Source: a virus
Taxonomy: Duplodnaviria > Caudoviricetes
Direction: 5' to 3' (one strand)
Length of the DNA stretch: 64,000 nucleotides
Virus record (IMG/VR): IMGVR_UViG_3300044537_000257
Coordinates: 1-64,000 of that record
The position numbers were made by a program, and so were the translations under genes. The first letter of the stretch is position 1, and each line of letters opens with the position of its first letter. Under the pieces are notes generated by a model. The model searched no databases. It saw only the letters and a list, made by a program, of their open reading frames with translations, and was not told the origin of the DNA. Below are positions 1 through 42,134 of this stretch, one piece after another.

Positions 1-65
1 GCACAGTCGGGTGATTTTTGGTATTAAATCATCAAGTGGGAGCTTCAAATTTTATCGCGATAATT

Positions 66-92
66 AAAAAACGCCTTGCATCAACAAGACGT
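66..92 (-). terminator. Host-side intrinsic terminator, probably of the tRNA used as attB
   Basis: Minus strand reads ACGTCTTG-ttgatg-CAAGGCGT-TTTTT, just downstream of the tRNA-like core. Confidence 0.65.
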
Positions 93-110
93 CAAACTCA
101 AAATTATTTA

Positions 111-126
111 TGCGCCTGGAGGGAAT
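111..126 (-). other. att core of segment A (3' end of a tRNA; intact tRNA expected at the far right end, outside the window)
   Basis: Minus strand ATT-CCCTC-CAGGCGC-A = end of T-loop, T-stem 3' strand, acceptor 3' strand, discriminator; 14 nt from the integrase stop; the rest of the tRNA is absent. Confidence 0.6.
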
Positions 127-139
127 CACCAGCCCTATC

Positions 140-1303
140 CTATTGGGCTTTAGCGGGTGCGGTTCTCAAATTGTTCTCAATTTTTTGAAGTGCGGTCTCG
201 ATGCTATCATCGGTTTGCACCTTATACTCATCAATCATGTAAGAATACACCTTTGATGTGATCCCAATATCCGCGTGGCCCAATCTTTTTGATATCGCGT
301 AAAGATCAATTTGGTTAGCTAGCAAATAGGCCACATGTGTGTGTCTAAGCGAATGGAAGTGGAAGCCTTGCCGATTTATCTTACTGGCCTTTAGCGCACG
401 TCTAAGCGCCTTATTTACCGCATTTGAGGTGGGTACGCCGGTTATCCTATTTAAGAATACCTGTTGTTTATCAGATTTTGGCTTTACCTGTTTTTTTAAA
501 TCCTTTAATATTGCCAGCAAATTAGTATTTGCTCGAACAATCCGCTTAGATGTTTCATTTTTTGGTTCTTTAAAATCATGCTCGACCTCGCTGTAGGCTC
601 GCTTGATGCTGATCGTTTTAAAGTTAAAATTAATATCGCGCCATTGTAGCCCTTGGATTTCGCCAAGGCGCATACCAGTGTAAACCGCAGTATAAATCAT
701 ATAGCTACTCATATTTTTAGGCGTAAGCCGCTGTTTAACGTGATCGGTCAAGCGGGTCATTTCGTCAATATTTAAATAGTCGATCTGTAGAGTACGTTTT
801 TGATCATATACGATCGTGGTGCGCTCGATAAAATCCTTTTTGATCAAATCATCATAGACTGCGTTACGAATACAGCCATGGATGCAGGTATCGACTTTAT
901 GGGCGGTCGCTTTGGCATGATCAACGCCAAATTTCTGTAAAAATTTTTGATAACTTTTGGCGTCAAGCTCAGCCAACTTTTTATCGGGCAGGTATTTCTT
1001 GATCACGTTATAAGTATATTCGTAGGCTTTAAGTGTCCGTGGTGAGACAACAGGCTTTTTATAAAGCTCGTACCATTCTTTAAAATAATCCAGTAAAAGT
1101 ATGTCACTACCAGGATCTAACTCATTTTTAAGGGCTAGATACTGATATTCTTGGACAAAGGCCCGTGCTTCCGCAATACGTTTAAATCCGGCCTTAGATT
1201 TAGCGTGCCGCTTACCGCTCTTATCGTAATAGTAAACCTTAGCTTGATACTTTCCATTTCTTAGAGTAATGCCTGGATCTTTTGGTTGTTTTGGTGCTGT
1301 CAT
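140..1303 (-). CDS. int: Tyrosine integrase 1 (arm-binding, SAM-like and catalytic domains)
   Basis: TGMRLGEI, FHSLRHTH, LGHADIGITSKVY catalytic motifs; start MTAPK at 1303 follows AAAGGA. Confidence 0.95.
   Translation of the reverse strand: MTAPKQPKDPGITLRNGKYQAKVYYYDKSGKRHAKSKAGFKRIAEARAFVQEYQYLALKNELDPGSDILLLDYFKEWYELYKKPVVSPRTLKAYEYTYNVIKKYLPDKKLAELDAKSYQKFLQKFGVDHAKATAHKVDTCIHGCIRNAVYDDLIKKDFIERTTIVYDQKRTLQIDYLNIDEMTRLTDHVKQRLTPKNMSSYMIYTAVYTGMRLGEIQGLQWRDINFNFKTISIKRAYSEVEHDFKEPKNETSKRIVRANTNLLAILKDLKKQVKPKSDKQQVFLNRITGVPTSNAVNKALRRALKASKINRQGFHFHSLRHTHVAYLLANQIDLYAISKRLGHADIGITSKVYSYMIDEYKVQTDDSIETALQKIENNLRTAPAKAQ
162..180 (+). repeat. Integrase-1 arm-type direct repeats GTTCTCAA x2
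   Basis: GTTCTCAA at 162-169 and 173-180 (11-nt period), 36 nt from the core, inside the int 3' end. Confidence 0.6.
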
Positions 1304-5947: not shown

Positions 5948-5970
5948 TTAAAAGAAAGAAGGAATTTTAA

Positions 5971-6398: not shown

Positions 6399-6439
6399 TT
6401 TTACGAGTTAAGTATAAAACAAAGTGAGGTCTTAAATCA

Positions 6440-7330: not shown

Positions 7331-7331
7331 C

Positions 7332-8419: not shown

Positions 8420-8432
8420 AGGGGGTTAGATT

Positions 8433-10378: not shown

Positions 10379-10580
10379 GATCAAATTAGTGTGTTTATTT
10401 GACGGATTAGTTAAGACTAAACACATCGAAATACATCTGCCTGAGAGCGAATATATTGGATTTGATGGGGATGTGTTTCGGATTGGACAAATGTATACGG
10501 TGGAGCGTTGGCGGGTGCTTAAAGCGCACATTATTGATCATGGCGTTATTGGAAAGGTGAGAAAGCTCAGTGAAGCGTAA
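10365..10580 (+). CDS. Hypothetical phage protein
   Basis: 71 aa ORF in operon. Confidence 0.5.
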   Translation: MRHVEIKLVCLFDGLVKTKHIEIHLPESEYIGFDGDVFRIGQMYTVERWRVLKAHIIDHGVIGKVRKLSEA

Positions 10581-10716
10581 AGGAAAGAAAAAATCAGTAA
10601 TCAAGAAGAAAAAGCGACGTATGGAGGCTAAGCGGCGCGAAAATGAACAGCCAGTTCCAGAGCTGTCACCGTTTGAAAAATCGCTGTATCGCGCAACCCA
10701 CACAACTTTAGAATGA
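10570..10716 (+). CDS. Small basic protein (48 aa, not in ORF track)
   Basis: GTG start, MKRKGKKKSVIKKKKRRMEAKRR...; fills the gap to the next RBS. Confidence 0.45.
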   Translation: MKRKGKKKSVIKKKKRRMEAKRRENEQPVPELSPFEKSLYRATHTTLE

Positions 10717-10726
10717 GGTGTTATTG

Positions 10727-11152
10727 ATGTCGAAAAAGCTGGAATTGAATATTAAATTATCCGAACTCGCTAATGGCGGCGCACAAGAAAAATTTAATCA
10801 CGAACTAAAACGGATTGCGGAAAACATTCTTGATCCTAACACGGACGCAAACAAGAAACGTAAAATCACGTTAACGACAACGTTTACGCCCAACGATGAT
10901 CGTAGCATTGTCACCATTGCCATTGATGTTAAGTCAACACTAGCGCCGGAGGTTGCTATTAATACGCTGATGATGGTTGGACGCAACAACAAGGGTCGAG
11001 TTGAGGCAAACGAGCTTAAATCGGGAACACCAGGTCAAACCTATTTTGATCCGGAGGACTCGACGCTAAAGGATGATAAAGGTGAGCCGGTCGATCAGGT
11101 TGAACAAAAAGCAAATAATGTTGTTGATCTGCAAGCCAAAAATAAAGCCTAG
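10727..11152 (+). CDS. Conserved phage protein, YfdP-like (often mis-annotated replication terminator)
   Basis: NGGAQEKFNHELKRIAENILDPNTDANKKRKITLT. Confidence 0.6.
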   Translation: MSKKLELNIKLSELANGGAQEKFNHELKRIAENILDPNTDANKKRKITLTTTFTPNDDRSIVTIAIDVKSTLAPEVAINTLMMVGRNNKGRVEANELKSGTPGQTYFDPEDSTLKDDKGEPVDQVEQKANNVVDLQAKNKA

Positions 11153-11164
11153 GAGGCCACGAAC

Positions 11165-11908
11165 ATGATTGAAAAAGCAGCATTGGAATATTTATCTGAG
11201 TTAGCGCAGGAAGCTGCCAGTAAGAAAATCATTAAGACTGAAGATGGTATCGAATACGGCATTGATGGGCAAGGCGATTTAACTCAATTACGACCGGCTA
11301 ACGGTGTCCGCAATGCACTGACCTTACACACATTATCTGGTGTAGTTGACTACGTTAAGAATAATGCTGAGCGCCAAACAGCTAGACTAATTTTGCACAT
11401 CGTTAACGAAACACACGTTGAATTACTTAACAGTTTAGATCAATACGATAACCGCGAAACATTAATTAAGTCTGATGCAATTGTGCCCGATATCTCTTTT
11501 GATAACTTTATCGCAGCAGAACAGTTGATCATTATTTTACAGTCACAGTTTGTTAACACATCTGACCGCGAAATTTTAATGAAAGTGCTGGGCAATTTGA
11601 AAGAAGAAAATGTTAAAAATGCGAGTGATGACGGCGTCTCTCAGGCGGTTACAGTTAAAACAGGCGTTGCCAGTGCGGGGGATGTACGTGTGCCTAACCC
11701 CGTTGAGTTACAGCCGTATCGGACGTTTGCCGAAATTGAACAACCCACCAGCAAGTTTATCTTTAGAATGCACGACGGGATGCGCGGCGCCTTAATTGAA
11801 AGTGACGGTGGCTACTGGCGCAACGATGCGATTCAGCGGATCAAAGAATACTTTGAAAAAGAGCTAAAAACTGAAATTGGTTCGAAGTATATCCGCATTA
11901 TCGCGTAA
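11165..11908 (+). CDS. Conserved phage protein, YfdQ/DUF2303-like partner
   Basis: VPNPVELQPYRTFAEIEQPTSKFIFRM...ALIESDGGYW. Confidence 0.6.
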   Translation: MIEKAALEYLSELAQEAASKKIIKTEDGIEYGIDGQGDLTQLRPANGVRNALTLHTLSGVVDYVKNNAERQTARLILHIVNETHVELLNSLDQYDNRETLIKSDAIVPDISFDNFIAAEQLIIILQSQFVNTSDREILMKVLGNLKEENVKNASDDGVSQAVTVKTGVASAGDVRVPNPVELQPYRTFAEIEQPTSKFIFRMHDGMRGALIESDGGYWRNDAIQRIKEYFEKELKTEIGSKYIRIIA

Positions 11909-26924: not shown

Positions 26925-27305
26925 ATGATCGTAACTGGCTTACGATTATTTGGATTGACAACTGTCGACGAGATCGGCCAGTTAACACTCGATGAATATG
27001 ATCTTTTGCTGGAAGCTGCTCAGCTACGGAATATTGATCAAGAACGCTTAATCCACATACAAGCGTGGGCTAATCAGATGGTACAAGCAACTGATCGTAG
27101 CGGCAAACGCGCCAAGTTTCGCAAGTTTAAGGAATTTTACGACGACGAAAAGATCATTCGAAAAATCACCTTGCAGCACGCTAATGGCCGCGTAATTGAC
27201 GAAAAGCAACGTCTTAAAGATGAACAACGGCGTAAGGCTGAGATTGTTAATCAGCGATTGAACGAATATTATCACAGGAAGGAGGAAAACAATGGAAAGC
27301 TATAG
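26925..27305 (+). CDS. Tail assembly chaperone T (GT partner)
   Basis: IGQLTLDEYDLL...AWANQMVQA; -1 frame relative to G and open upstream of 26925. Confidence 0.7.
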   Translation: MIVTGLRLFGLTTVDEIGQLTLDEYDLLLEAAQLRNIDQERLIHIQAWANQMVQATDRSGKRAKFRKFKEFYDDEKIIRKITLQHANGRVIDEKQRLKDEQRRKAEIVNQRLNEYYHRKEENNGKL

Positions 27306-30300
27306 TGTAACAGCGGTGCTTAGCGCCGTTGATAGCAGTTTTAGTAGTACCATTCGTAATGCCTCTAATGCTGTGGACGCTTTTCAGTTGGGCACTAGAA
27401 CAAGCTTAGGCAACGTCGGTAAAACGGTGGAAGGAATCGGCTCTAAGTTAACTAAGGGCGTTACATTGCCGTTAGGTTTAATGGCCGTAGCTGCGGCTAA
27501 AACATCAATGGATTTTGGCGCTCAAATGAGCCGAGTACAAGCCATTTCTGGTGCGACCGGCAAGCAGATGGGTGCGCTTAAAAATCAAGCAATTAAGTTA
27601 GGGGCTAAAACGGCCTTTAGTGCAAAGCAAGCAGCTGAGGGCATGGAAAACTTAGCATCGGCCGGCATGAACTCTCAGCAGATTATGAAAGCCATGCCTG
27701 GAGTTCTTAATTTAGCGGCTGTTTCCGGTGGTGACGTTGCAAAAGCGGCTGATAACATGTCAACATCACTAAACGCTTTTGGTTTATCAGCAGGCAAGTC
27801 CAGCCATGTTGCCGATGTATTCGCGGAAGCTGCGGCTAAAACGAATGCAGAAGCGAGTGATATGGGCGATGCCATGAAGTATGTCGCACCACAAGCCCAC
27901 GCTGCTGGTCTTTCACTCGAAGAGACTGCAGCAGCAATCGGTGTGTTATCAGATGCAGGTATTAAAGGCAGCACGGCTGGTACTACTTTAGCCCAAGCAT
28001 TGATGCGTGTTCAGAGTCCGTCAGCTGAGGCTAAAAAAGCAATGCAGCAAATTGGATTTAGCGCTTACGATGCCAACGGCAAAATGAAACCATTAGCTAA
28101 GCAGGTCTCCGAATTAAAAGGCAAGTTAAAAGGGATGACGGATGAGCAGAAGCAGAACACTTTAGCCACGATTTACGGCATGGAAGGCGGTCGGGCGATG
28201 AACGTCTTGCTGCAAGCACAGAGTGGTAAGCTATCGTCACTGACTAAAGCCTTGAAGTACTCTAAAGGTTCTGCGGCGGATATGGCTAAGATCATGCAGG
28301 ATAATGCAAAATCTGCTGTCGAACAGTTAGGTGGCGCCTTTGAATCTGCCGCCATTGCAATTGGCGATAAAATGGCACCAACTATACGGCGCGTTGCTGA
28401 TTTAATCTCAAATTTAATTGGTAAGTTTCTCGATGCTAGTCCGGCTGTACAAAACTTCATTTTAGTTGCTTTGGGTATTGCCGCTGCGGCAGGCCCTATT
28501 TTAGTTGTGATCGGTAAAATGATGCAGTTTACGGCAAGCACAAAAACAGCAATGGCTGCGTTGCGATCGATGAACGGTGAAGCTAAGCTAACTGGTGGCT
28601 TATTAAAGGCACTGCCTTGGCTAGTTGTAGCTGCTGGGATTGCTTTATTAGTGGCTGGCTTTGTTAAACTATATAAATCATCGGCTCAATTTCGTGATTT
28701 TGTTAACGATATTGGATCAGCACTTAGAAGTATTTTTGGCCCAGCTGTTGAGTGGGCTGGGAACTTACTAGGTGGGTTTGCAGACTGGTTTAAAAAAGCA
28801 TCTACATCAATGACTGATAGTCAAAAGGCGATTACTGCAATCGTGTCAGGGTTGTCTGTCCTAGGAGCGACTTTGGCCATAACACATGGTGGATTAGGTA
28901 AGTTAGTTGCCAAGTTATTTAGCTTTGGTGACGCCGCTAAAAAACCGACTGCTCCTATTCAGGGTCTTGGATCATCAATCCTAAAATTAGGCGCTAGTAT
29001 TGGTATTGCTGCAGCTGGCATCGGCACATTTATTTTTGCTGTTGCTGAGTTAGCTAAAACGGGCGACGCTGGTGTTGTAACACTAACCGCCGTAACTATA
29101 AGCATTGCTGCTTTAGCTGCTACGTTTGCATTATTAGGGCCAAGACTGACGGCTGGTGCCGCTGGTATGGTTGCGTTTGGTGTGACGGTAGCGGCTGTTG
29201 GCGTTGGCATTGGTGCGGCTGCGTTGGGTATTGCGGCTTTGATTGTCGCCTTTACCGGTTTAACAACTCACGTGAATGCCATTGTGCCAACATTTGCTGC
29301 TGTCGGTACTGGATTTATAGCTATGATGACAATTATGCTAAATGGTGTGATTTCTAACGCACCACTGATTGCACAAGCATTTATTGCACTAGGTACTGCT
29401 ATTTTAACTGCGATTAATACTTTAGCACCACAGATCAGCCAGACGTTTTTGCTTTTACTAACGACCTTAGTCAATACAGTTGTAGCAGCAACGCCGTTAA
29501 TCGCTAATGGATTTATGCAGATGCTAATGACGATTCTTAATACAATTTTGACTTACACACCGCAAATCGCAAGTAGTTTCATGCAGATTTTATCTGCACT
29601 ACTTAATGCGATAGCAACTTACATGCCACAAATTGTAGCTGGCTTTGCGAACATCTTAATTAATTTTCTTAATACTCTAACCAGTTATGTACCTCAGATT
29701 GCTGCTGCCGCAACGAATCTATTAATCGCAATCATGGATGCTATTGGTAATAATGCACCAGCAATTATTGCTGCATTTTTCGCAATGGTCGGTCAATTTG
29801 GCGAAGCGATTGTGCAACAACTGCCGATTGTGATTCAGTTGATGACCGCGTTACTTACAGCATTAGTTGCGACTGTGGTCAGTTACTCAAGCTCGTTCTT
29901 AAAGATCGGGGGTTTACTGATTCAATCACTCGGCGCTGGTTTGATGGGTAAAAAAGTCGATGTGGTCGGTAAAGCGACCGACATTATGAATGAAGCTGGT
30001 AGCAATGCGACTAAGACTGGGATGTCAGCCTTTGATTCTGCTGGTGGTAACAGTGCCATCAAGGCTTTGCAGGCAATTGCTAACAAGAATGGTAATGCTA
30101 GAACAACTGGTGGCGCTTTAGCTAGCTCTGCGGCTGGTGGTATTACTGATAAAAACGGTACTTTAAAAAATGCCGGTACAACAAATGGTACTAATGCAGT
30201 TAGCGGATTAAAGTCAAAATTAGGTCAAATGAAATCAACCGGTTCTTCGTTAGGCAGCAATGCGGCTAGCGGAATTTCATCTAAATCGGGTAGTGCAAGA

Positions 30301-30852
30301 AGTGCTGGCTCTAAACTGGGTAGTTCTGGATCTAGCGGTGCAAGAGGGCAACACGGCTCATTTAGTAGTGCCGGATCATATTTAGGCCAAGGTTTAGTCA
30401 ATGGTATTTCCAGCATGGCCGGTAGTGTTATGAGTACGGCGGCTTCTTTAGCAAGCCGTGCTGCGGCTGCTATTAGAAGCGCATTAAAGATTCATTCTCC
30501 GTCACGTGTGACACGAGAAATCGGTTATTATGTTGCCGCCGGGATGCAGGTTGGGATGATTAAAAATGCTGGCATGGTGGCAGATGCTGCTACTGATTTA
30601 GCGATGGCTGCAGTGCCCGAAGTAAGCGACTTTAATTTACGGGACGTTTACAGCAACATGGACAGCAACTTTAAAGGTAATACCTTTAGTGGAGCAATGC
30701 AGCACGAACTAAATTTGACCAACAAGACTGTTGTTGAAGTTCCCGTCAATCTGGATGGCCAGGAAGTGGCACGGATTACCGCAGAACCAATGGAAAGTGA
30801 ACTAGCTAAACGGTCACAACGAACAAACCGGATTTATGGCAGAAGAAGTTAA
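27292..30852 (+). CDS. Tape measure protein (TP901 family)
   Basis: MSRVQAISGATG, AGIKGSTAGTTL, long Ala/Gly hydrophobic tract, IHSPSRV. Confidence 0.95.
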   Translation: MESYSVTAVLSAVDSSFSSTIRNASNAVDAFQLGTRTSLGNVGKTVEGIGSKLTKGVTLPLGLMAVAAAKTSMDFGAQMSRVQAISGATGKQMGALKNQAIKLGAKTAFSAKQAAEGMENLASAGMNSQQIMKAMPGVLNLAAVSGGDVAKAADNMSTSLNAFGLSAGKSSHVADVFAEAAAKTNAEASDMGDAMKYVAPQAHAAGLSLEETAAAIGVLSDAGIKGSTAGTTLAQALMRVQSPSAEAKKAMQQIGFSAYDANGKMKPLAKQVSELKGKLKGMTDEQKQNTLATIYGMEGGRAMNVLLQAQSGKLSSLTKALKYSKGSAADMAKIMQDNAKSAVEQLGGAFESAAIAIGDKMAPTIRRVADLISNLIGKFLDASPAVQNFILVALGIAAAAGPILVVIGKMMQFTASTKTAMAALRSMNGEAKLTGGLLKALPWLVVAAGIALLVAGFVKLYKSSAQFRDFVNDIGSALRSIFGPAVEWAGNLLGGFADWFKKASTSMTDSQKAITAIVSGLSVLGATLAITHGGLGKLVAKLFSFGDAAKKPTAPIQGLGSSILKLGASIGIAAAGIGTFIFAVAELAKTGDAGVVTLTAVTISIAALAATFALLGPRLTAGAAGMVAFGVTVAAVGVGIGAAALGIAALIVAFTGLTTHVNAIVPTFAAVGTGFIAMMTIMLNGVISNAPLIAQAFIALGTAILTAINTLAPQISQTFLLLLTTLVNTVVAATPLIANGFMQMLMTILNTILTYTPQIASSFMQILSALLNAIATYMPQIVAGFANILINFLNTLTSYVPQIAAAATNLLIAIMDAIGNNAPAIIAAFFAMVGQFGEAIVQQLPIVIQLMTALLTALVATVVSYSSSFLKIGGLLIQSLGAGLMGKKVDVVGKATDIMNEAGSNATKTGMSAFDSAGGNSAIKALQAIANKNGNARTTGGALASSAAGGITDKNGTLKNAGTTNGTNAVSGLKSKLGQMKSTGSSLGSNAASGISSKSGSARSAGSKLGSSGSSGARGQHGSFSSAGSYLGQGLVNGISSMAGSVMSTAASLASRAAAAIRSALKIHSPSRVTREIGYYVAAGMQVGMIKNAGMVADAATDLAMAAVPEVSDFNLRDVYSNMDSNFKGNTFSGAMQHELNLTNKTVVEVPVNLDGQEVARITAEPMESELAKRSQRTNRIYGRRS

Positions 30853-30876: not shown

Positions 30877-33066
30877 GTGTACAATTTTCGTGATCTATCC
30901 CCGTATACGGGCACCGATGTGGCCGCTTGGCCGGCTGAGTCAATGGTCTTTAATGGGAAGTTGTTTGAACGCGAGATCCCAGAATATCGTACCTTACAAG
31001 TACAAGGGCGCGAGCTATTAGGCCAGTCACTAGACACACTGACCGTTGGTAATCAGAATGGTGAACGACTACGCTCACGGCGTTATCCAGCCCGTGAAAT
31101 CACCGTTAAATACCAAGTAGATGCGGCAACAACCGAACGGTTCCGCGAGATATTTTATCAGTTGAATGCTCTGCTGCAAGGTCAAGACAATAAATTTTAC
31201 TTTTTAGACGACACGACGAAATATTTTATCGGTACGTTATCGGAAATCGAAGCGGTACCTGGTGGGAGTAATTCGGTGGTATCGTCTTTTACTATCCTGT
31301 GCAATGACCCGTTTGCTTATGCCATGCGGGAGGATAGCTTTGCAGTCGCTAGTGCTGGGACTTATGATTTTAAGTTAGATTTTGCTAACAAGATCTTTGG
31401 TGATTTTAATAGTAATCCCAATATGATCTATGGTGCCGAATGGCACGAGATCGCAAGCCGCAAGCCCGACTCACTTTGGTGGGAATGGGAGCAAGAGAAT
31501 TACAATAAACTAGCTAAGCAGGATGGTGTATGCGGATCATATACGCGGACCGATGTTGGTAACTCGACGCGACTAGTGATGCGCTTTGATGTGATCAAAG
31601 CGATTGAGCAACAGATGCCAGGTTTTTGGCAGCGGCTAGGGCTGATCGAATTATCTGAGCGGCTAGCGTGGCTGAGTGATCATATCAAGAAGTTTTACAT
31701 CGAGGTGTGGAGCTACGGTCACGGTGCTAGTGGGTATGGCACGAAAGTGCAGACCTGGTCTGGTACCGAGTGGATCGGATCACAGGCTAATACCGCAAGC
31801 AAGCCGGACAAAAATACCTATAGTTTCGCCGGACAAGAAGCCGCTGCCGCCATGACAGACGGCTATTTTTATGCACTGACTGGTACCAATGATGCCGATG
31901 CTACAACACCGACTGTTAGTTATTTAGACTATGCCGCATTAAGTGTCAGTGTTGATGTGCCGGCAACTAAAAACGCAGTGACCATCACTAACGATGGTCC
32001 ATTACCGGTACCAGTCCGATTTGAGCTGACCAATCATGACGATAACGGCTTTTTTGGACTGACTAGTAGCCGCGAGAATATCCTGATTGGGAAACCTAAC
32101 GATATCGACGGCGGTGTGGTGGCTAAATCGGAACGGCTATTTACGACAAACCAAAACAACGCCAACGGCCTAAAGCAGTGGGTGCTCAATAAGGGCGTAA
32201 TCAATGAGTGGAACGAAAATCCGGTACAAAGCGGTAACTTTGAAGACCCAGCAGTGATCAAGGAAAGTCGCTGGCGTTTGCGAAATGCTCAACCAGATGA
32301 AACGACGGCTTGGGGACCACACGCGGCTAATGGTCGTGGCTGGCATGGGCCAAGTGCGACAGCAATTTTTAACCCAGATTCAAACGGAGCCGTTGGTGCA
32401 AAGAATTTTAAAGCGCGTTTTTATCTGCAATTTTTGTTCGGCAATATGTATGCCGGTGGGTTACAGCAGGTCAATCTAGGTGGCCCAGATGGTGAGCTTT
32501 TAGTATCCGTCCAATTTTGGAAAGGCAGGGGCACGCACGGATCGGTCAAAATCCGTGTAGGCAATAACTGGGCCTACATCGATGAAAATAACGCCCGCTG
32601 GGATAACTTTTTTGGCGCTGTAGTGATTATTCGTAGCGGCAACACCTACAGTATCCAGCTACAGTCGTCCGAGGGCTCAAATCGTGTCAACCAAACGATC
32701 AGTTACACCGATCCAGACAGCGCCAAGATTTTATGCCAGCAAGCGACTTACTGGAAAGCCATTTTCGGTGCCTATTCCGCTGCCGGCACTATGAATAATG
32801 ACCTCTACGATTTTTGGATCGAAAAGAACAACGTGGAAGACTATGTGGATATTCCAAACGTTTTTAGCGACGGCGATCAAGTTGTGATCGATGGTCAAGA
32901 CGGCAAAGTAACCACGAAGGTCAACGGCACGCTGAGTATTGCATTACAGGATGTCGGCAGCCAGCCAATCTTGGCTTATCCTGGCAAAAATGTGATCAAT
33001 GTGCTGTATTCTGACTTTGCCAGTGCACCAGATGTGACGGCTTATATCCGTAAAAAATATTTATAG
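30877..33066 (+). CDS. Distal tail protein (evolved Dit with inserted domains)
   Basis: Dit N-terminus (YRTLQVQGRELL), FTILCNDPFAY; 729 aa with large inserts. Confidence 0.85.
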   Translation: MYNFRDLSPYTGTDVAAWPAESMVFNGKLFEREIPEYRTLQVQGRELLGQSLDTLTVGNQNGERLRSRRYPAREITVKYQVDAATTERFREIFYQLNALLQGQDNKFYFLDDTTKYFIGTLSEIEAVPGGSNSVVSSFTILCNDPFAYAMREDSFAVASAGTYDFKLDFANKIFGDFNSNPNMIYGAEWHEIASRKPDSLWWEWEQENYNKLAKQDGVCGSYTRTDVGNSTRLVMRFDVIKAIEQQMPGFWQRLGLIELSERLAWLSDHIKKFYIEVWSYGHGASGYGTKVQTWSGTEWIGSQANTASKPDKNTYSFAGQEAAAAMTDGYFYALTGTNDADATTPTVSYLDYAALSVSVDVPATKNAVTITNDGPLPVPVRFELTNHDDNGFFGLTSSRENILIGKPNDIDGGVVAKSERLFTTNQNNANGLKQWVLNKGVINEWNENPVQSGNFEDPAVIKESRWRLRNAQPDETTAWGPHAANGRGWHGPSATAIFNPDSNGAVGAKNFKARFYLQFLFGNMYAGGLQQVNLGGPDGELLVSVQFWKGRGTHGSVKIRVGNNWAYIDENNARWDNFFGAVVIIRSGNTYSIQLQSSEGSNRVNQTISYTDPDSAKILCQQATYWKAIFGAYSAAGTMNNDLYDFWIEKNNVEDYVDIPNVFSDGDQVVIDGQDGKVTTKVNGTLSIALQDVGSQPILAYPGKNVINVLYSDFASAPDVTAYIRKKYL

Positions 33067-33081
33067 GAAGGGGGATAAACT

Positions 33082-36000
33082 ATGCAATTATATGTACTCG
33101 ACCGCGCCAAGAACACTTTGGCCACGACCTCAAGTTTTTATAGCGACAAGCACCATAAAGAGTTGACCGCCGGTGCATCGATCTTTGAGTTTACGATTGA
33201 TAAATCTGACTCAGCCGCCCAGTATATGACGACCGGGAATTACCTAGTGTTCCAGGATGACCGTGGGCGGGCGTGGTCGTTTACGATTTTGAGCTACGAC
33301 GAAACGCAGACGACTAAGACTGTTGCCGCCGAAGATGTCAGTATCGAATTGCTTAATAAAGCCATGGACGTCTGGAATACTGATCAAGCTTATCCGTTTA
33401 GCTATTATTTTGACTTAGTGACAAAAGGCACACCGTGGACACTTGGTGTTAACCAGCTGACCGATTTATCACGTAAACTAGTTTACACAGGCCGAGACAC
33501 TGGCTTAGGCCGATTGCTGTCCGTTTTAAAGGGCTTTGATAATGCGGAGTGTCAGTTTAATATCAAAGTAAAACAAAACAGTCCTATCGAGTTTACCGTC
33601 GACGTTTATAAATCAATCGGCACCGTGCAGGATAATATCCAAATTGTCTATAACAATGAGTTAAATGACATTAAAAAGACAGAGAGCCGCGCCCAATTTG
33701 TTACTGCATTAGCCGGTGTGGGTGGCTTGGTCGAAAATCAAGCAACAACTGATCCTGGGCTGGAGAAACATATTGATTTTACTGATATTGACTATAAAGA
33801 CGATAACTTTGTGTCGCCAAAGGGCGATAAATTTTTACGAGCGGTTACGGCTAACCGAACATTTAATCCAGGGACAACCACTTATATTGAGGACTTTTAC
33901 GACTACGATACACAGAGTAGCCAGGAGCTGCTTAACCGTACGCTGACACAACTTAAGGAGCGCTCAGAACCACAGTACACCTACAATGCTGACGTTAAAG
34001 TGATTGACCCCACACTGGATATTGGCGATACGGTGACCATTATCGATCACGATTATAACCCAGCACTCTATTTGCAAGCACGGGTGGCCACGTTGGATAA
34101 GTCATACACGGATCCCACGCAAGGCGCGATCACGTTTTGTAATTACCGGGTGCTTAACAGCAACCTATCCGATCAGCTACGAGCAATGCAAAATATCATT
34201 GATCAGCTGCCAACCAGCGCATCAATCAAGGTAATTAACAATAATATTGTGCAGATGATTACTCAAAATGAGGAGCTTAAAAAGCAAGTCGCCCTATCGT
34301 TTGAGTCAGCCAACGGTAAGAGCCGGGTATGGTTTAGCCGATCATCAACCGCGCAAAACGGCGATGTTGCTTTTATCAAAAACGCTGACGGCGCCACTGA
34401 GATTTGGAAGTTTGTTGAGGGCGCCTGGAAACTGGACACCGGTTTAGCCACATTTGATGACGTTAAAAAAGCCGCGAGTGCGGCGGCAGATGCTGGCAGT
34501 CAGGCAGTTACTGCTGGCCAACAGGCGAGCGCCGCTGGTAGTCAAGCCGCTGTTGTAGGATTGCAGGCAAGTACAGCCGGAAGCCAAGCAATTTCTGCCG
34601 GCAATCAAGCCAGTTTAGCTGACAGTCAAGCTGCTATAGCTGGCAGTCAGGCAGTTACTGCTGGTAGTCAAGCCAGTTCTGCTGGTAGTCAGGCAGTTGT
34701 TGCAGGATTGCAGGCCAGTGCCGCAGGTAGCCAAGCGATTTCTGCTGGTAGTCAGGCCAGTTGGGCCGGTAGTCAAGCCGCTGTAGCTGGTAAGCAAGCA
34801 AGCGCCGCTGGTAGTCAAGCAGTTATTGCTGGTCAACAAGCTAGTACAGCCGGAAGCCAAGCGATTTCTGCTGGTAGTCAGGCCAGTTGGGCCGGTAGCC
34901 AAGCTGCTGTAGCTGGTAAGCAAGCGAGCACTGCTGGCAGTCAGGCAGTTACTGCTGGCCAACAAGCCAGTGCTGCAGGTGCCGATGCTAAATCAGCTGG
35001 AGACTTTGCGGCTAGTGCCGCTAGTCAATCTACAATCGAGACGTCAGCAGCACGATCGACAGCTAATAGTGCGGTGGATCAAGCTAATTTAGCTGTCTCA
35101 CAAGCAGGCTTTGCCAATAATGCTGCAGATCAGGCTAAGTCAGCTGCGGCTAGTGCGCAGAGTGATGCTGCCGGTGCTTTAGGAAAAGCTAGTACAGCAA
35201 TCACTAATGCTAGTACCGCCATAAACGCGGCCACTGATGCGCAGACTAAGACCAACTCACTGGTCACCAAGGTTGACGATATTGCTGGGACAATTAAGAC
35301 CCTAGCAACTACTGAGACCGTTGACCAGTTGGCAGGTACCGTCGCGACCACTCAAAGCTTAGCGCAGTTTGCGGCTGACGGTCTCAAGCTCAAGGCAGAT
35401 ACGACCACAGTCGATAAGATCAATGGCACAGTCAACGATCTTAAGGGTGAGCTTGATGTGCAGGCGGATAAGATTGCCGCCACGGTTACCGCTAGTGATG
35501 TGACTGGAATGCTTGGTAATTACGCTACTCAGTCATGGTCTCAGGGGCAGATATCTGCTGCTAAAAATGAGATTTCCGCGTCGGTTGAGACGGTGCAAAC
35601 TCAGGTTAAAAACAGTGCGGTTGGCACTAATTTATTAACAGGAACGAGTTCGTCAGAACAGTCATACATGAATGACTTTTCAACCGTTCCCGGTTGGATT
35701 TATAGTAACTTTCTACAAGGGTCACAACCTGCTGTTAATGTCGGAAGCACCTATACCTACTCGATATATTTAACGAAATTAACGGGGTCTTTTGCTTTGG
35801 GGTATTGGGGATATGACAGCAATAAAAAATATGCTAGATGGTTCCCTAGTCCTATTTATTCTTCATTGGGTAAAGTTTCATGGACGTTCACGATTCCTAG
35901 TGGAATATCTTATATAGTTCCACATGTTGTGCACGCTTCTGATGATTTTACTTGTACAGCAAAAGAAGAAAAACTTGAAAAAGGGTCCGTAGCTACTGAT

Positions 36001-38091
36001 TGGTGCCTAGCGCCGGAAGATCAGGCGACTGTTGATTGGACTAAATCTCAACTAGATATTAAAGATGGCAAAATTTCTGCTGCTGTGACTAGCTTAAAGA
36101 GCGATATAACCAACGCCACCGCAGGTATGGCGACACAGACGTGGACACAAGGGAGGCTTGATTTAACGGCTGAGGGTTTTACCAGCCAGATTAGCAGTGT
36201 GCAGACAAATCTAGATAACATGCAAATCGGCGGTCGTAACTATATCTTAAACAGCGGCCAGCCCATTACGATTAATGGCGATACTGATCACTTTAAGATA
36301 CTGTATTATAATTTAACGCCAGGGACTTGGACATTTAGTGCTAACGCCAAATATACTCGTGGCACCGATACCTCAGTTTTTCTGGCTATTTATTCGGCCG
36401 ACACAGCAATTGGCTATAATAACGCATCCGTACCAATTGTTAACGGTAAAATCGCTTGGACATTTAAGCCAAACAATCCGGCCGGCGTACTGCTATTAAT
36501 GTACGCTGGTTCAGGGTCTTGGGGGACAACGCCTGGGAAAACGCTGGAAGTCAGCCATCGAAAGCTAGAAAAAGGCAACAAATCGACAGACTGGTCTCCA
36601 GCACCGGAGGATCAAGCTACTGTAGCAGACGTATCTAGCCAATTTACCCAGCTCCAAAACGACATTAATCTCCGCGTTAAAACGGGTGATTTAGTTAGTC
36701 AAATTGATGTTAACGCCAAACGGATTTTACTCGATGGCGCAAGCACCTATATTACAAATACAACTCACATCGACACCGGTGTGATTAAAACAGCCATGAT
36801 CGCTGATGCCGCCATTACAAACGGTAAGATCGCTAATGCGGCGATCGATAATGCTAAAATCGCTGACGCGTCAATCGACAATGCTAAAATCGCTGATTTA
36901 GCTGTTAGCACGGCTCAAATAGCCGACGGCGCTATAACAAATGCCAAGATCGGTAACGCATCGATCACGACGGCAAAAATCGGCGACGCACAAATTAATA
37001 GTGCTAAAATTGGTGCATTAGCCGTAAACACTGCACAAATTGCCAATGGTGCGATCACAACCGCAAAAATCGGTTCACTAGCTGTTGGCACGGCTCAAAT
37101 AGCCGATGGTGCAATCAATAGCGCCAAAATCGCGTCACTGGCTGTAGGCACCGCCCAGATAGCAGATGGTGCAATCAGCAATGCCAAAATTGGTAAAGCG
37201 GCAATCTTTTCTGCGCAAATTGCCGAATTAGCTGTGGGTACCGCCCAGATCGCTGATGCCGCCATCACAAATGGCAAAATCGCTAATGCGTCAATCGACA
37301 ATGCTAAAATCGCAAATGCGGCGATCACGGCTGCTAAGATCGCTGATTTAGCCGTAGGTAGCGCACAGATCGCCGATGGTGCCATTAGTAGCGCTAAGAT
37401 AGGTAATGCCGCGATCACATCTGCACAAATTGCCGATGCATCGATTATTGATGCCAAAATTGTTAATTTAGATGGTAGTAAAATTGTCGCTAACTCGATC
37501 ACAGCAGATAAGCTAGATGTTAATGCGATTGAAGTTGGGCTAAACACTTACGGGATTGGTTGGCAGATTACGCCGGCAAGCATTAAATTTTTACCATCTG
37601 CCAGCAGCACTAAGGCTAGCTTAATTTTAACCGGTGAAGGCATCATCTTGGGCGATACTACCACCGGTGAAATGCTGGGAGAAATTACTGGATCACCTTT
37701 TGATTTGACCAAAGACACCTGGTTCAATGGATTTAACCTATTGCTTAAATACAACGGTGGTGATTTTGTGCATCTAGGTCGAGAGAAAGCAGATGGCACC
37801 ATGAGCAGTAAAATGATCTGGAGTAACGCTGATGAGAGTAGTTTTGGTATTTATTCGGGTTTTAATTTTTACGATCATGTGCATTTTAATACTATTGGCC
37901 CATTTGATCCTGATGATAATGCGCAAATGCACGTAGTCCGAACGCAGATTGATGGCCATTGGTGTACCGGATTTATGGCGCACGACGGGCTTGCTGGCGT
38001 GGCATTTGGCGATGGTGGCTGGCTGTATCTTGAGCGAGATAATAAATGGATTGATTTTTGGAACATTGTCAACAAAATCGGACTAGCGTGA
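33082..38091 (+). CDS. Tal / tail spike-fibre (endopeptidase-type N-terminus, repeats, putative binding modules)
   Basis: 1669 aa; TLDIGDTVTIIDHDYNPALYLQARV; two GxNL/Y...KLEKG..TDW.PAPED modules. Confidence 0.9.
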   Translation: MQLYVLDRAKNTLATTSSFYSDKHHKELTAGASIFEFTIDKSDSAAQYMTTGNYLVFQDDRGRAWSFTILSYDETQTTKTVAAEDVSIELLNKAMDVWNTDQAYPFSYYFDLVTKGTPWTLGVNQLTDLSRKLVYTGRDTGLGRLLSVLKGFDNAECQFNIKVKQNSPIEFTVDVYKSIGTVQDNIQIVYNNELNDIKKTESRAQFVTALAGVGGLVENQATTDPGLEKHIDFTDIDYKDDNFVSPKGDKFLRAVTANRTFNPGTTTYIEDFYDYDTQSSQELLNRTLTQLKERSEPQYTYNADVKVIDPTLDIGDTVTIIDHDYNPALYLQARVATLDKSYTDPTQGAITFCNYRVLNSNLSDQLRAMQNIIDQLPTSASIKVINNNIVQMITQNEELKKQVALSFESANGKSRVWFSRSSTAQNGDVAFIKNADGATEIWKFVEGAWKLDTGLATFDDVKKAASAAADAGSQAVTAGQQASAAGSQAAVVGLQASTAGSQAISAGNQASLADSQAAIAGSQAVTAGSQASSAGSQAVVAGLQASAAGSQAISAGSQASWAGSQAAVAGKQASAAGSQAVIAGQQASTAGSQAISAGSQASWAGSQAAVAGKQASTAGSQAVTAGQQASAAGADAKSAGDFAASAASQSTIETSAARSTANSAVDQANLAVSQAGFANNAADQAKSAAASAQSDAAGALGKASTAITNASTAINAATDAQTKTNSLVTKVDDIAGTIKTLATTETVDQLAGTVATTQSLAQFAADGLKLKADTTTVDKINGTVNDLKGELDVQADKIAATVTASDVTGMLGNYATQSWSQGQISAAKNEISASVETVQTQVKNSAVGTNLLTGTSSSEQSYMNDFSTVPGWIYSNFLQGSQPAVNVGSTYTYSIYLTKLTGSFALGYWGYDSNKKYARWFPSPIYSSLGKVSWTFTIPSGISYIVPHVVHASDDFTCTAKEEKLEKGSVATDWCLAPEDQATVDWTKSQLDIKDGKISAAVTSLKSDITNATAGMATQTWTQGRLDLTAEGFTSQISSVQTNLDNMQIGGRNYILNSGQPITINGDTDHFKILYYNLTPGTWTFSANAKYTRGTDTSVFLAIYSADTAIGYNNASVPIVNGKIAWTFKPNNPAGVLLLMYAGSGSWGTTPGKTLEVSHRKLEKGNKSTDWSPAPEDQATVADVSSQFTQLQNDINLRVKTGDLVSQIDVNAKRILLDGASTYITNTTHIDTGVIKTAMIADAAITNGKIANAAIDNAKIADASIDNAKIADLAVSTAQIADGAITNAKIGNASITTAKIGDAQINSAKIGALAVNTAQIANGAITTAKIGSLAVGTAQIADGAINSAKIASLAVGTAQIADGAISNAKIGKAAIFSAQIAELAVGTAQIADAAITNGKIANASIDNAKIANAAITAAKIADLAVGSAQIADGAISSAKIGNAAITSAQIADASIIDAKIVNLDGSKIVANSITADKLDVNAIEVGLNTYGIGWQITPASIKFLPSASSTKASLILTGEGIILGDTTTGEMLGEITGSPFDLTKDTWFNGFNLLLKYNGGDFVHLGREKADGTMSSKMIWSNADESSFGIYSGFNFYDHVHFNTIGPFDPDDNAQMHVVRTQIDGHWCTGFMAHDGLAGVAFGDGGWLYLERDNKWIDFWNIVNKIGLA
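34490..34985 (+). repeat. 7/14-aa AGSQA repeats in Tal with a 126-nt near-perfect duplication
   Basis: GSQAVTAGQQASAA units; approx. 34727-34825 vs 34853-34951. Confidence 0.85.
36790..37500 (+). repeat. 5/10-aa (AKIAD/AAITN) repeats in the Tal C-terminal half
   Basis: Over 200 aa of xKIxx/xAIxx periodicity. Confidence 0.85.
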
Positions 38092-38108
38092 GAAAGGAAT
38101 TTTTTAAC

Positions 38109-38546
38109 ATGAAAATTATTTTAGCAAACGAAGTATTGGCTCCATCGGTAAACTTTTTAGGCACAATTAAATTAAAAGGCAAGGATAGTCGGGCTCGCAC
38201 GAAGCTCGTTAATCTTTTGACACAGCAAGTGCGCGAATTGCAAGAAAGCGAACAAGCGTTAATTGACGAATATGCTAAAACCGATGAAAACGGCAAGCCA
38301 GAAAAAGCTGAAAATGGCAATGCCAAAATTGACCCCGATCGGGCCAAAGAATATCTAATTGAACATAGCAAATTGATGTTGGAACGGGTTGAAATTGAAG
38401 GCGGTACCTATGTTAACCACATTGATGACTGCGAAAAAATCTTAAATGACTATGACGGCGAACTAGAGGGAGCAAATGCCCAAGCCTACGATGCACTGCT
38501 AGATGCGTTTGAAGCTGCACAAAAATCAGAAAAGGCAGGTAAATAA
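38109..38546 (+). CDS. DUF1617-like protein
   Basis: LKGKDSRARTKLVNLL...LIDEYAKTDENG. Confidence 0.65.
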   Translation: MKIILANEVLAPSVNFLGTIKLKGKDSRARTKLVNLLTQQVRELQESEQALIDEYAKTDENGKPEKAENGNAKIDPDRAKEYLIEHSKLMLERVEIEGGTYVNHIDDCEKILNDYDGELEGANAQAYDALLDAFEAAQKSEKAGK

Positions 38547-38548
38547 TT

Positions 38549-39052
38549 ATGCTAGAAGTTAACACACGATCGGTCACCTATAACTTAGATGACACAGTTG
38601 CCACAACGGGCATCGTTGTGAGCTTAGAAGGGTATAATAATAGCCGTGAATCAGCCAACATGACGATTATTTTAGCAAGTGAGGATTTACCGTCCGGCAC
38701 TAAGTTTGACGACCTTACCCGCACACAGATCATTGAGTTGGCACGCAAAAAGGCGGTCAGCTTTATCAATCCGGCAGCAGATACGACCCCAGCGCTTGAT
38801 GTGGATGTGGACTCAATCGCTTATGTACTGGATAAAGCATCCAGTAACACGGAGTCGATCACAATTGCATTAAAAGGTTACAGCACTGAAAATCGTAATA
38901 ACGTCAATCTGTCGGTCAACCTGACTACGGAAGATTTAAAAGATGGTGTTGGTCTTGATGACTTAAGTCGTAAGCAGGCCGAAGCCTTGGCACGTAAAAA
39001 AGGTGCTGACTACGTTAATCCACCGGCAGAAGAACCAGCGCCAAAAGCCTAG
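38549..39052 (+). CDS. Hypothetical protein with an internal tandem domain duplication
   Basis: Two units ending DDLTRTQIIELARKK / DDLSRKQAEALARKK. Confidence 0.65.
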   Translation: MLEVNTRSVTYNLDDTVATTGIVVSLEGYNNSRESANMTIILASEDLPSGTKFDDLTRTQIIELARKKAVSFINPAADTTPALDVDVDSIAYVLDKASSNTESITIALKGYSTENRNNVNLSVNLTTEDLKDGVGLDDLSRKQAEALARKKGADYVNPPAEEPAPKA

Positions 39053-39069
39053 GAGGCTGGTCTAGATGA

Positions 39070-39381
39070 TTGGAAGTGATGCGGTTGGGACCACACGTAG
39101 TTTTTGGCTTTACAGTATCGGAGTGGGTCGGAATCATCGGAATTTTATCCGGCACTTACGGTTTTATCGTTAAGCCATTATTGACAAAATTAGAAACGTT
39201 AAGTAAATCAATTGATCAAATCAGCGAGAACTCATTGATCGAACATAATCGGCTGTGGCATCACTACGATATCCATGATAAACAACTATGGAAGCATGAT
39301 CAGGAGATTGGGATTTTATACGATAAAAATCACTTAAAACGTAGTGATATTAAATATGATGATAAGAAGGACGATAGATAA
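39070..39381 (+). CDS. Lysis-cassette membrane protein (holin accessory)
   Basis: One TM helix followed by coiled coil, before the holin. Confidence 0.6.
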   Translation: MEVMRLGPHVVFGFTVSEWVGIIGILSGTYGFIVKPLLTKLETLSKSIDQISENSLIEHNRLWHHYDIHDKQLWKHDQEIGILYDKNHLKRSDIKYDDKKDDR

Positions 39382-39611
39382 TGAATTGGCAAACACGAAT
39401 TAAAAATAAGACTTTCTGGCTGGCCCTGGTGCCGGCTATTTTATTACTCGCGCAAGTTGTGGCGGTACCATTCGGCTATAAATTTGATATTGATCTAATT
39501 AATAAACAGCTATTGGATATCGTTAACGCGGTTTTTGGCGTTTTGACGATTGTCGGGATTGTGGCTGACCCGACCACCGCGGGTATTACGGATAAGGGGG
39601 CTACTAAATAA
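39381..39611 (+). CDS. Holin (phiLC3-like)
   Basis: MNWQTRIKNKTFWLALVPAILLL...GIVADPTTAGITD. Confidence 0.9.
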   Translation: MNWQTRIKNKTFWLALVPAILLLAQVVAVPFGYKFDIDLINKQLLDIVNAVFGVLTIVGIVADPTTAGITDKGATK

Positions 39612-40630
39612 TGGTAACAATCAATAAACAATTTGCTTTTGGTGCCAACGAAGGCTCTAGTCAAAAAACGCAAAGTCTTTATATCATTTTGCACGAGGTT
39701 GGGGTGGATAACTCTAGTGCCCAGGCTAATGCAGCGTATTTCAAAAATAACTGGTCTACCGCCGAAACCTATTCTACCTTTGTTGTAGGTGCGGATGGAA
39801 TTTATCAAGTCGGTGAACCAGGCTATGTAGCTTGGGCGGCGCTGAACGCTAACCCTTATGCACCAGTCCAGATTGAATTTGAACGGACTAATGATGCTAA
39901 TCGATTTAAAAAAGGCTATGCCAATTATATTGCTCTAGCTCGTGAAATGGCTGATAAATACGGCATACCTAAAACTTTAGATGCAGGTGGCGCCGGAACA
40001 CCAGGTATTAAATCACATTTGTGGGTGACTAATAATTATGGTGGTGATCATGTTGACCCATATGGCTATTTAGCCTCACATGGCATCTCTAAATCACAAT
40101 TAGCAAAGGATTTGGCTAATGGTGGTACAAGCCCAGCTACTATTGCGCCGGTAGCTAGCAATGCTAAGACAGTCGGCACTGATGTCACGTATGCGTTGCG
40201 CAGCCTTAATGGTGGCTGGCTCGATAATGTCACTAACTTTGGCGACGGTGACAATGGTTATGCGGGTGTCCCGAACCACCAGCATGATTATTTAACGGTA
40301 AGTGTTGATCATGGATCAATCAAGTATCGAGTTAAAACGGCGCAAGATGGTTGGCTTGGCTGGGTCACTAAAGGTGATCGTAATGATTTGACCAATGGTG
40401 CCGCTGGTGTCACTGGTCACGCGATTACTGGCGTGCAAATCGTTTATAATACCCCAGTCGGCGAAGCCTATCAGCAAGCCTATTATCGGTCTCAAACGAC
40501 TAAACGCGCCGGCTGGCTTGGTGTGTGCGCCGATGACGGCTCAATCGCTGGTTTTGATAGTTGGGCCGGCGTCGATGGTGAGCCATTAGATCGGTTACAG
40601 ATCAAAATTGCACCAGCTAACCCGTTTTAA
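39611..40630 (+). CDS. Endolysin, N-acetylmuramoyl-L-alanine amidase with C-terminal wall-binding repeats
   Basis: IILHEVG, QIEFE, SHLWV...DHVDP amidase motifs. Confidence 0.9.
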   Translation: MVTINKQFAFGANEGSSQKTQSLYIILHEVGVDNSSAQANAAYFKNNWSTAETYSTFVVGADGIYQVGEPGYVAWAALNANPYAPVQIEFERTNDANRFKKGYANYIALAREMADKYGIPKTLDAGGAGTPGIKSHLWVTNNYGGDHVDPYGYLASHGISKSQLAKDLANGGTSPATIAPVASNAKTVGTDVTYALRSLNGGWLDNVTNFGDGDNGYAGVPNHQHDYLTVSVDHGSIKYRVKTAQDGWLGWVTKGDRNDLTNGAAGVTGHAITGVQIVYNTPVGEAYQQAYYRSQTTKRAGWLGVCADDGSIAGFDSWAGVDGEPLDRLQIKIAPANPF

Positions 40631-40698
40631 AAAAACAAAGGTCGCTTCCTTAATCGGAGGTGGCGTTATTCGTACGTGTTGACTATAGTAAGTATTTG

Positions 40699-40728
40699 GT
40701 CTATCCCTTGCGGGGTAGGCTTTTTTTT
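40699..40728 (+). terminator. Terminator after the lysin
   Basis: GTCTATCCC-ttgc-GGGGTAGGC-T8. Confidence 0.7.
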
Positions 40729-40821
40729 ATATCCTGGATTATTTAAAAGTAGATATCCTAGCTTGATAGATGTTTAGCTATCTTATTAGGCATATATAAT
40801 AGTAGCTTTTTTATCAGCGGC

Positions 40822-41021
40822 TGTGCAAAATTTGTGCAAAATGATTTAGTTTTATATCTGTCTTTATCTGTAAATAAAAAATAAGAACCTTACTAAACGT
40901 TGATTTAGCAAGGTTCTTATTTTTTATAATTTTGTTTAACTGCTTATAAAATGGAGGCGGCGGGCATTTTGAATATTGATGTGACGCTACTTTAACGGGC
41001 CTTGTGCAAAGTTTGTGCAAA
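40822..41021. other. attP-like junction of integrase 2: arm repeats on both sides of a tmRNA-type core
   Basis: TGTGCAAA x2 at 40822/40833 and at 41003/41014; core TGGAGGCGGCGGG at 40952-40964 (minus: CCCGC-CGCCTCC-A). Confidence 0.7.
40876..40925. terminator. Bidirectional terminator hairpin in the att region
   Basis: AAAAAATAAGAACCTT...AAGGTTCTTATTTTTT. Confidence 0.7.
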
Positions 41022-42134
41022 ATCATTGCTGAAATTTTCTGGTTTTAAATCTGACAACGCGGTGATGATTTTGTCATCGGTTTTTTGCTTATACTCATCG
41101 ATTAAATAGGAGTAGACACGGCTGGTCACGGTGATATCCGAGTGGCCTAATCGTTTAGAGATTGCATACAGATCAACCCCGTGTGATAAAAGATAAGCAA
41201 CATGGGTGTGGCGGCAGGAATGGAAATGGAAGCCTTTACGATTAATGCCAAGCTCTTTCATCGCCGCGCGTAAAACCTTATTGACCGCGTTTGAGGTGGG
41301 GATCGTTTTAAACTGGTTGGCAAAGATCCGGTACTGTTTATCCTCATGTGGTAACTCACTGATTAGCTCAAGCAACCATTTATCGGTGCGAATTGTACGC
41401 TGAGAAGCATCGTTTTTTAAATCCTCAAAGGCTTTAGCGGACTCACTCCACGATTGATTAACTGAGATCGTATTAAAATTTTTATTAATATTTTCCCAGG
41501 TCAAGCCACCAATTTCGCCGGGGCGCATCCCCGTAAATAGGGCAGTAATGATCATATATTTTGATGTATAATGCGGGTTACGCGTTTTCATGAGATAATC
41601 GACTAACTGTTTAGTCTCTTTTTCGCTTAAATATTCAATATCCCAAGTTTTATCTTTATCATAGACCAGCACTGATTTTTCGATAAAATCTTTTTGGATC
41701 ACACCATCATAGACCGCATCTTTTATACTGGCGTGGTAAAGCGAGTTTAGCTTAGACACGGTAGATTTAGCCCGATGCTTGCCAAAATTCTTGATAAACT
41801 TTTGATAAGCGCGCCGATCCATTTCATCAATACGTGCATTAGGTAAAAACTGTTTAAGCACCTTATGCGCGTAAACGTAGGTGCCAACGGTCCGGTTACG
41901 GATGCTAGACTCCTTATAAGTCTCGTACCATTCCCAAAAATAGTCGGCAAAAAGCGGTGGCCGCTTTGATTTTAATTCGCCGTTGTCGGCTTTTATCTCA
42001 TACTCGTTTGCAAAAAGCTGGGCTTCGCGCTTGGTTTTAAAACCAGCTTGGCTCTTTGTGCGAAATTTACCGGTCTCGTCTTTATAGCTGACTCGGACCT
42101 GCCAGTTGCTGCCACGTTTTTTTATGCTGGCCAT
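40992..42134 (-). CDS. int: Tyrosine integrase 2
   Basis: TGMRPGEI, FHSCRHTH, LGHSDITVTSRVY. Confidence 0.95.
   Translation of the reverse strand: MASIKKRGSNWQVRVSYKDETGKFRTKSQAGFKTKREAQLFANEYEIKADNGELKSKRPPLFADYFWEWYETYKESSIRNRTVGTYVYAHKVLKQFLPNARIDEMDRRAYQKFIKNFGKHRAKSTVSKLNSLYHASIKDAVYDGVIQKDFIEKSVLVYDKDKTWDIEYLSEKETKQLVDYLMKTRNPHYTSKYMIITALFTGMRPGEIGGLTWENINKNFNTISVNQSWSESAKAFEDLKNDASQRTIRTDKWLLELISELPHEDKQYRIFANQFKTIPTSNAVNKVLRAAMKELGINRKGFHFHSCRHTHVAYLLSHGVDLYAISKRLGHSDITVTSRVYSYLIDEYKQKTDDKIITALSDLKPENFSNDFAQTLHKAR

Follow-up and report, generated by a model that had tools for sequence, protein, structure and literature searches.

A complete attP between two phage genomes on one contig, probably two phages joined during assembly

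This locus raises the question of why a complete phage attachment site (attP) stands downstream of what looks like an integrated prophage. The DNA analysed here, which we call the window, comprises bases 1 to 64,000 of a 72,276-bp record classed as a virus. In this record an integrase gene (int1) is followed by a complete phage gene set, which closes with a holin and an Amidase_2 lysin (39611-40630), and the lysin is followed by 361 non-coding bases, a second integrase gene (int2) and a second phage genome extending up to the record end. We refer to the phage of int1 as phage A and to that of int2 as phage B, and name their attachment sites accordingly (attP_A and attP_B). Host-like DNA makes up at most 106 bp of the record, and no tRNA or tmRNA gene was found in the whole 72,276 bp. 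Simple tandem integration at neighbouring sites was considered and rejected, since no bacterial DNA (ssrA terminator or tRNA) lies between the lysin and int2. Two other features of the gene layout can be mentioned here. An ORF of 340 aa, the size of a tyrosine recombinase, lies in the middle of phage A (14986-16008), distant from any att site, and degenerate tandem or dispersed repeats of 70-90% identity are found at 34491-34980 and 36794-37462, within the gene for a 1669-aa tail protein.

The stretch between the lysin and int2 contains all parts of an attP, namely the P arm, the core and the P' arm, at 40696-41023 (Table 1). The 21-mer TGTGCAAAnTTTGTGCAAAAT occurs exactly twice in the 64 kb, at 40822-40842 and 41003-41023, both on the plus strand; the chance expectation is 0.03, and none of 100 shuffles reached two matches. 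Each copy is a direct dimer of the octamer TGTGCAAA, and four of the six octamers present in the window fall within the two dimers. The final codons of int2 contain the right dimer, and the stop codon of this gene is 27 bp from the core. Between the dimers stands TGGAGGCGGCGGG (40952-40964), and an inverted repeat, AAAATG/CATTTT, encloses the core. The 14-bp extent of the core was set by a three-way comparison of the attP in the window, a lysin-side junction (L009) and an int-side junction (L003), and it marks the block of identity between attP_B and attB, not a mapped crossover point. Read on the ssrA strand, the core consists of CCCGC (the 3' half of the T stem), CGCCTCC (the 3' strand of the acceptor, with U70), A and T, and the tmRNA discriminator is included in it. 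A 70-aa minus-strand ORF that spans the attP (40814-41026) has no Pfam match and was taken as spurious.

Int2 has an N-terminal arm-binding domain (Arm-DNA-bind_4, PF14657, 5.6e-11, residues 11-52), by which it probably binds the TGTGCAAA dimers of both arms, and its sequence matches an integrase of Loigolactobacillus coryniformis at 98% identity. The int1-type arm motif, TGAGAAC-N3-TTGAGAAC, is found beside int1 only, at 162-179, with none near the lysin, and therefore the lysin-proximal DNA carries int2-type and not int1-type arms. The cassette also has a relative in another setting: a 3703-bp contig of SRR31968028 (L012) encodes the identical Int2 protein with nearly the same attP, beside an S24-type repressor and a Bro-N module. 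As the lysogeny module of that contig is different, the int-attP cassette appears to move between phages as a module. In a phage collection, no near match to the lysin-attP-int2 stretch was obtained, the matches being distant lysins and integrases, and int2 peptides had no match in a scan of a genome-contig collection from which very near records may be left out.

Table 1. Features of the two phages, their attachment sites and the shared 127-mers, in window positions
Feature	Position	Strand	Remarks
Probable host DNA downstream of a tRNA-Arg-like gene (bacterial arm of attL_A)	1..106	-	terminator hairpin and U-run, z = -3.9
Core of the phage A att site	107..127	-	common to the window and attP_A contigs; resembles tRNA-Arg 3' end
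int1, tyrosine integrase of phage A	140..1312	-	Pfam Phage_integrase 8.6e-26
int1-type dimer TGAGAAC-AAT-TTGAGAAC, P' arm of A	162..179	-	sole copy in the window
Tape-measure gene, A-specific	27292..30852		
127-mer V	31906..32032	.	equals the last 127 bases of the record, 72150-72276; exact, mismatch at base 128
Second 127-mer vertex, the point of divergence between the A and B tail blocks	33884..34010	.	equals the first 127 nt of L011, mismatches from 128
Endolysin of phage B, last gene before attP	39611..40630	+	Pfam Amidase_2 1.5e-12
P arm of attP_B	40696..40950	+	opens with the lysin terminator (40698-40730), from a computed fold
Arm-type dimer TGTGCAAA-ATT-TGTGCAAA-AT, P arm	40822..40842	+	108 bp from the core
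Long perfect hairpin with T-runs, P arm	40874..40927	-	18-bp stem, -23.3 kcal/mol, z = -6.9
Core ATGGAGGCGGCGGG, 14 bp	40951..40964	-	equals the 3' end of L. coryniformis ssrA
P' arm of attP_B with dimer 41003-41023	40965..41023	+	identical in integrated prophages L001, L003, L004
int2, tyrosine integrase	40992..42134	-	Pfam Phage_integrase 4.1e-24; stop 40992-40994

The target of attP_B can be read from integrated relatives in L. coryniformis. On the lysin side (AZDC01000001, L009), the lysin terminator, the TGTGCAAA dimer and the hairpin come in the same order as in the window, and the core then runs straight into a full-length tmRNA gene, which was found by ARAGORN with the tag AKNNNNSYALAA and by Rfam as RF00023 (194 bits, model positions 1-374 of 374), and which ends in the phage-derived core. 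P arm and core (40696-40964) are 98.5% identical to this junction (L009 11064-11332). On the int side (CP017697, L003; also L001 and L004), identity with the window extends from int2 through the P' dimer to ...CCCGCCGCCTCCAT, beyond which the sequence diverges into a GC-rich hairpin and T-run, that is, the displaced ssrA terminator. The L. coryniformis prophage thus splits the arms exactly at the core: ssrA borders the prophage at its lysin end, and the ssrA terminator at its int end. Because a prophage separates the P and P' arms in this way, they are apart in the lysogen and joined in the window. The P-arm dimer is kept in the integrated relative as well as in contigs of three SRA runs, and both integrated and attP forms of the ssrA-type site are present in public data. 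The hairpin in the P arm is flanked by A/T runs and lies about 25 nt downstream of the rebuilt 3' end of ssrA in the integrated relative, and it probably replaces the ssrA terminator which is displaced upon integration. A pattern of core plus ssrA terminator had no match in the scan of the genome-contig collection, from which very near records may be left out. An earlier note, made from the sequence, had described an intact attP with int2-type arms on both sides of the core (the right pair inside int2), had named ssrA as its target and had stated that the lysin-proximal DNA carries int2 and not int1 arms; the two dimers, the runs of P arm and core into the tmRNA gene and of P' arm and core into the terminator flank, and the single int1-type motif at 162-179 bear out each of these points.

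Judged from its sequence, attP_B shows every sequence-level hallmark of a lambda-type attP used by a heterobivalent tyrosine integrase. As in the lambda type, a short core is flanked by arm repeats, there is a separate N-terminal domain for arm binding in the integrase, the int gene adjoins the P' arm, and the integrated forms hold one arm at each prophage end. Unlike in the lambda type, the arm sites of B are two direct dimers with an 8-bp unit and an 11-bp period, and one of them is inside the coding end of int. The same can be said of the features expected for elements that integrate at the 3' ends of tRNA or tmRNA genes (Williams 2002, Nucleic Acids Res 30:866, as cited in PMC4234937), all of which are recognizable in attP_B at the sequence level. 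The 3' half of the T stem, the 3' strand of the acceptor and the discriminator all lie within its core, and phage DNA rebuilds the gene. It differs from those elements in that int is placed at the end with the displaced 3' fragment and old terminator, not beside the rebuilt ssrA, and in that the P arm has a strong hairpin as a putative substitute terminator. The nearest characterised phage, by sequence, is EV3 of Lactobacillus (Fructilactobacillus) sanfranciscensis, whose integrase is 53% identical to Int2. EV3 has a lys-attP-int layout and integrates Campbell-style into the 3' end of a tRNA-Leu gene (PMC4234937). The layout of B is the same, with about 360 non-coding bp between lys and int compared with about 430 bp in EV3, but the target of B is ssrA instead of tRNA-Leu. 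The ssrA prophage of L. coryniformis (CP017697/AZDC01000001; L003, L004, L009) is closer, with a 98% identical integrase, arms of about 98-100% identity and the same core and target. Unlike B, it is integrated, its lysin has 271 aa with SH3_5, and its tail genes are only about 80% identical, so that it is a mosaic relative of B and not the same phage.

At the left end of the record, a different attachment site is seen. Identity between the window and contigs that carry phage A in attP form (L011, L015) ends at window position 107. Together with the terminator hairpin in bases 1-106, this fits host DNA downstream of a tRNA, which would make the end of the window the attL of an integrated phage A. 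The core of A (107-127) resembles a tRNA-Arg 3' end, and in unrelated contigs tRNA-Arg genes have the 20-mer TTCGATTCCCTCCAGGCGCA at their 3' end. In the two JGI metagenome contigs with attP_A (L011 11114-11460; L015 1190-1500), a second dimer and phage genes are found beyond the core. There, TTGAGAAC dimers with an 11-bp period flank the tRNA-Arg-like core on both sides, whereas window 1-233 has the P' side only. Window 1-127 would be the last 127-mer in common with an empty attB, which suggests a further k=127 vertex at the left end of the contig, and lysogens occurring together with non-lysogens.

The join between A and B can be examined from the repeats of the record. The 127-mer V inside the window is repeated exactly at the record end (Table 1), and no other internal repeat of the record is longer than 94 bp, which is the next longest exact run. 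In the JGI metagenome workflow, 2x150-bp reads are assembled with metaSPAdes at k = 33, 55, 77, 99 and 127 (doi 10.1101/2020.09.30.320929). As the end repeat is 127 bp and all other runs are at most 94 bp, the contig ends at the first 127-mer that is met twice at k=127, and its path comprises a stem (1-31905) and a loop of 40,244 bp (31906-72149). Such a shape resembles the 'lollipop' contigs of SPAdes/metaSPAdes, in which the terminal repeat has the length of the largest k (127) and sibling contigs begin at shared 127-mers. Unlike in a simple circle, the repeat matches an internal position and not the contig start, hence a stem plus a circle. Several blocks of 90-93% identity, offset by about 40.2-41.4 kb, are common to A and B. 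The exact segment common to both, from 31906 to 34010, would measure at least 127 bp and might reach about 2.1 kb, more than the insert of a short-read library. Continuity from A to the attP block independent of a repeat was not found in the record, where the sole link is the 127-mer 31906-32032 = 72150-72276. The lysin, the 1669-aa tail protein and a 729-aa Dit-like protein had no record by exact look-up, and the lack of exact records for the 1669-aa and 729-aa proteins fits genes that were split or recombined at contig ends.

Sibling assemblies present the two phages apart. Contig Ga0455767_000385 of JGI 3300044542 (39,848 bp; L017) is 100% identical to positions 57638-72276 of the record (14,639 nt, no mismatch) and runs on from the left arm of B through V into window sequence 32033-33487 with 0 mismatches. 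A and B may, however, be identical in this stretch. The start of the contig was placed at 33884 by arithmetic, its length being that of 33884..72276 plus 32033..33487. With this start, computed from lengths, the contig has neither the left arm of A nor host DNA, and it shows B alone, which closes on itself but for 396 bp, with lysin, attP and int2 in the interior. Exact matches to int2 and to the holin have each been recorded on a contig of 20-50 kb, and exact int2 in attP form is present in Logan contigs of SRR31968028, SRR16377030 and SRR16377032. For phage A, contig Ga0455767_000610 from that metagenome, JGI 3300044542 (29,581 bp; L011), is 100.000% identical to window 107-11312 and joins int1 through attP_A, with int1-type dimers on both sides, to a right arm of its own. 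This right arm, which carries three extra genes, a 342-aa lysin, a holin and a 1546-aa tail protein, reaches no more than 82-91% identity with window 33884-40730. Scans of metagenome contigs for a 61-mer of V and for the attP core pattern gave no match, and neither did scans of viral contigs for attP_B and for the junction of B-left with V.

Further observations concern the cargo and co-occurrence of the two phages. The extra genes of A, which are on the minus strand between its lysin and attP_A (L011 11583-13099), encode products of 219, 154 and 127 aa; the 127-aa product matches Phage_Gp111, the trio resembles moron-like cargo, and B has nothing at the equivalent position. Logan contigs with the tape-measure gene represent A in SRR16377030 (L023) and B in SRR16377032 (L018). 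The end of L023 (window 30887) and that of L018 (71131) both fall 30 nt inside one and the same 62-bp run common to the two phages. These breaks are as expected for k=31 unitigs, which suggests a second variant, probably the other phage, in each run.

We propose that attP_B stands beside prophage A through a stem-and-loop assembly artefact, in which a stem of prophage A was joined to the circle of phage B, and we regard this as the probable explanation. B would be a temperate siphovirus-like phage of Loigolactobacillus coryniformis of ~40.2 kb, with attP_B at 40696-41023. Its Int2 would exchange strands within the 14-bp core shared with the 3' end of the host tmRNA gene, and integration would rebuild ssrA from the phage-borne core. 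The attP would be intact because the sequenced DNA held B in circular, concatemeric or virion form. During assembly, the stem (attL and the left arm of the related phage A, integrated at tRNA-Arg) would enter the B circle at a segment that is exactly the same in both phages, and the path would round the circle via attP_B until the contig stopped on regaining the 127-mer V. Phage A would consist of A-left, the shared segment, its own tail-lysis block and attP_A, and phage B of B-left, the same shared segment, the tail-lysis block seen in the window and attP_B. From these sequences, A and B are best read as physically separate molecules. The suggestion of the earlier note that the tail-lysis block of the window belongs to B is supported, as A has a block of its own that is 82-91% identical and comes with three extra genes and its own attP. 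The main proposal of that note, an attP inside the chromosome as part of a nested or cointegrate prophage, is not supported, as the link is a k=127 repeat vertex and an independent assembly closes B; misassembly through shared repeats, which the note had given as the alternative, is the better-supported reading, with B closing on itself through the same vertex.

Among the other explanations a true cointegrate is the likeliest, although we consider it unlikely overall. In this case a circular B would have recombined homologously with the tRNA-integrated A inside the shared Dit/tail segment, giving the order chromosome-attL_A-A left-B tail/lysis-attP_B-int2-B left-A tail/lysis-attR_A, with a live attP_B in the chromosome. 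This predicts precisely the contig order found, host DNA apparently stands at the left end, and A and B have exact common segments of at least 127 bp. Recombination functions are also present in both phages (ERF in A, and a PDDEXK/ssDNA-binding module in the relatives of B), and recombination in the shared segment would give a k-mer graph identical to that of the artefact. Moreover, the extension by the assembler from the left arm of A into the B block could reflect read-pair support, which would count against an artefact. However, A is connected to the attP block solely through a repeat vertex at the k-mer limit, attP-form B occurs in several runs, and a cointegrate with kilobases of direct repeat on both sides would be resolved easily. 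In the sibling sample, both phages assemble separately in attP form, each with its own tail-lysis block. Since the sibling assembly closes B through V and A has its own tail-lysis block, the artefact is favoured over the cointegrate. That the contig order is real, B having recombined into tRNA-Arg-integrated A in part of the host population to leave a functional attP_B in the chromosome, is in our judgement improbable. If it were true, the chromosomal attP_B could recombine with the attB of host ssrA, inverting or deleting the DNA between the two loci.

The closed B loop in the de Bruijn graph would likewise be given by a tandem B-B polylysogen at ssrA, arranged head to tail with an attP-like junction, in which case the join to A would still be an artefact. 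The relatives of B do integrate at ssrA, but neither attL_B nor attR_B junctions turned up for this B sequence, every readable contig with exact int2 shows the attP form, and the array is an extra assumption that adds no explanatory power; we hold it to be very unlikely. That the repeats are due to chance or regulation and form no att site is scarcely credible. A core-like 13-mer with up to 2 mismatches is indeed expected about 0.6 times per window, but the dimer pair is above chance expectation, the similarity break points in the integrated prophages fall exactly at the core, and the neighbouring integrase has an arm-binding domain. The probability that remains is left to other arrangements.

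In conclusion, attP_B most likely represents ordinary phage biology plus an assembly artefact, and the unusual nested architecture is most likely not real. Caution is needed with stem-and-loop contigs in virus catalogues, as they may be taken for tandem or nested prophages; such a path also inflates the genome length, here to 72 kb compared with two phages of roughly 40 kb each. The analysis provides a mapped attP/attB pair for a Loigolactobacillus phage, with ssrA as the target, a 14-bp core and defined arm dimers, and a second pair was mapped for the related phage A, with a tRNA-Arg-like core and TTGAGAAC dimers. Both att pairs could serve as integration tools in Loigolactobacillus and for setting prophage boundaries.
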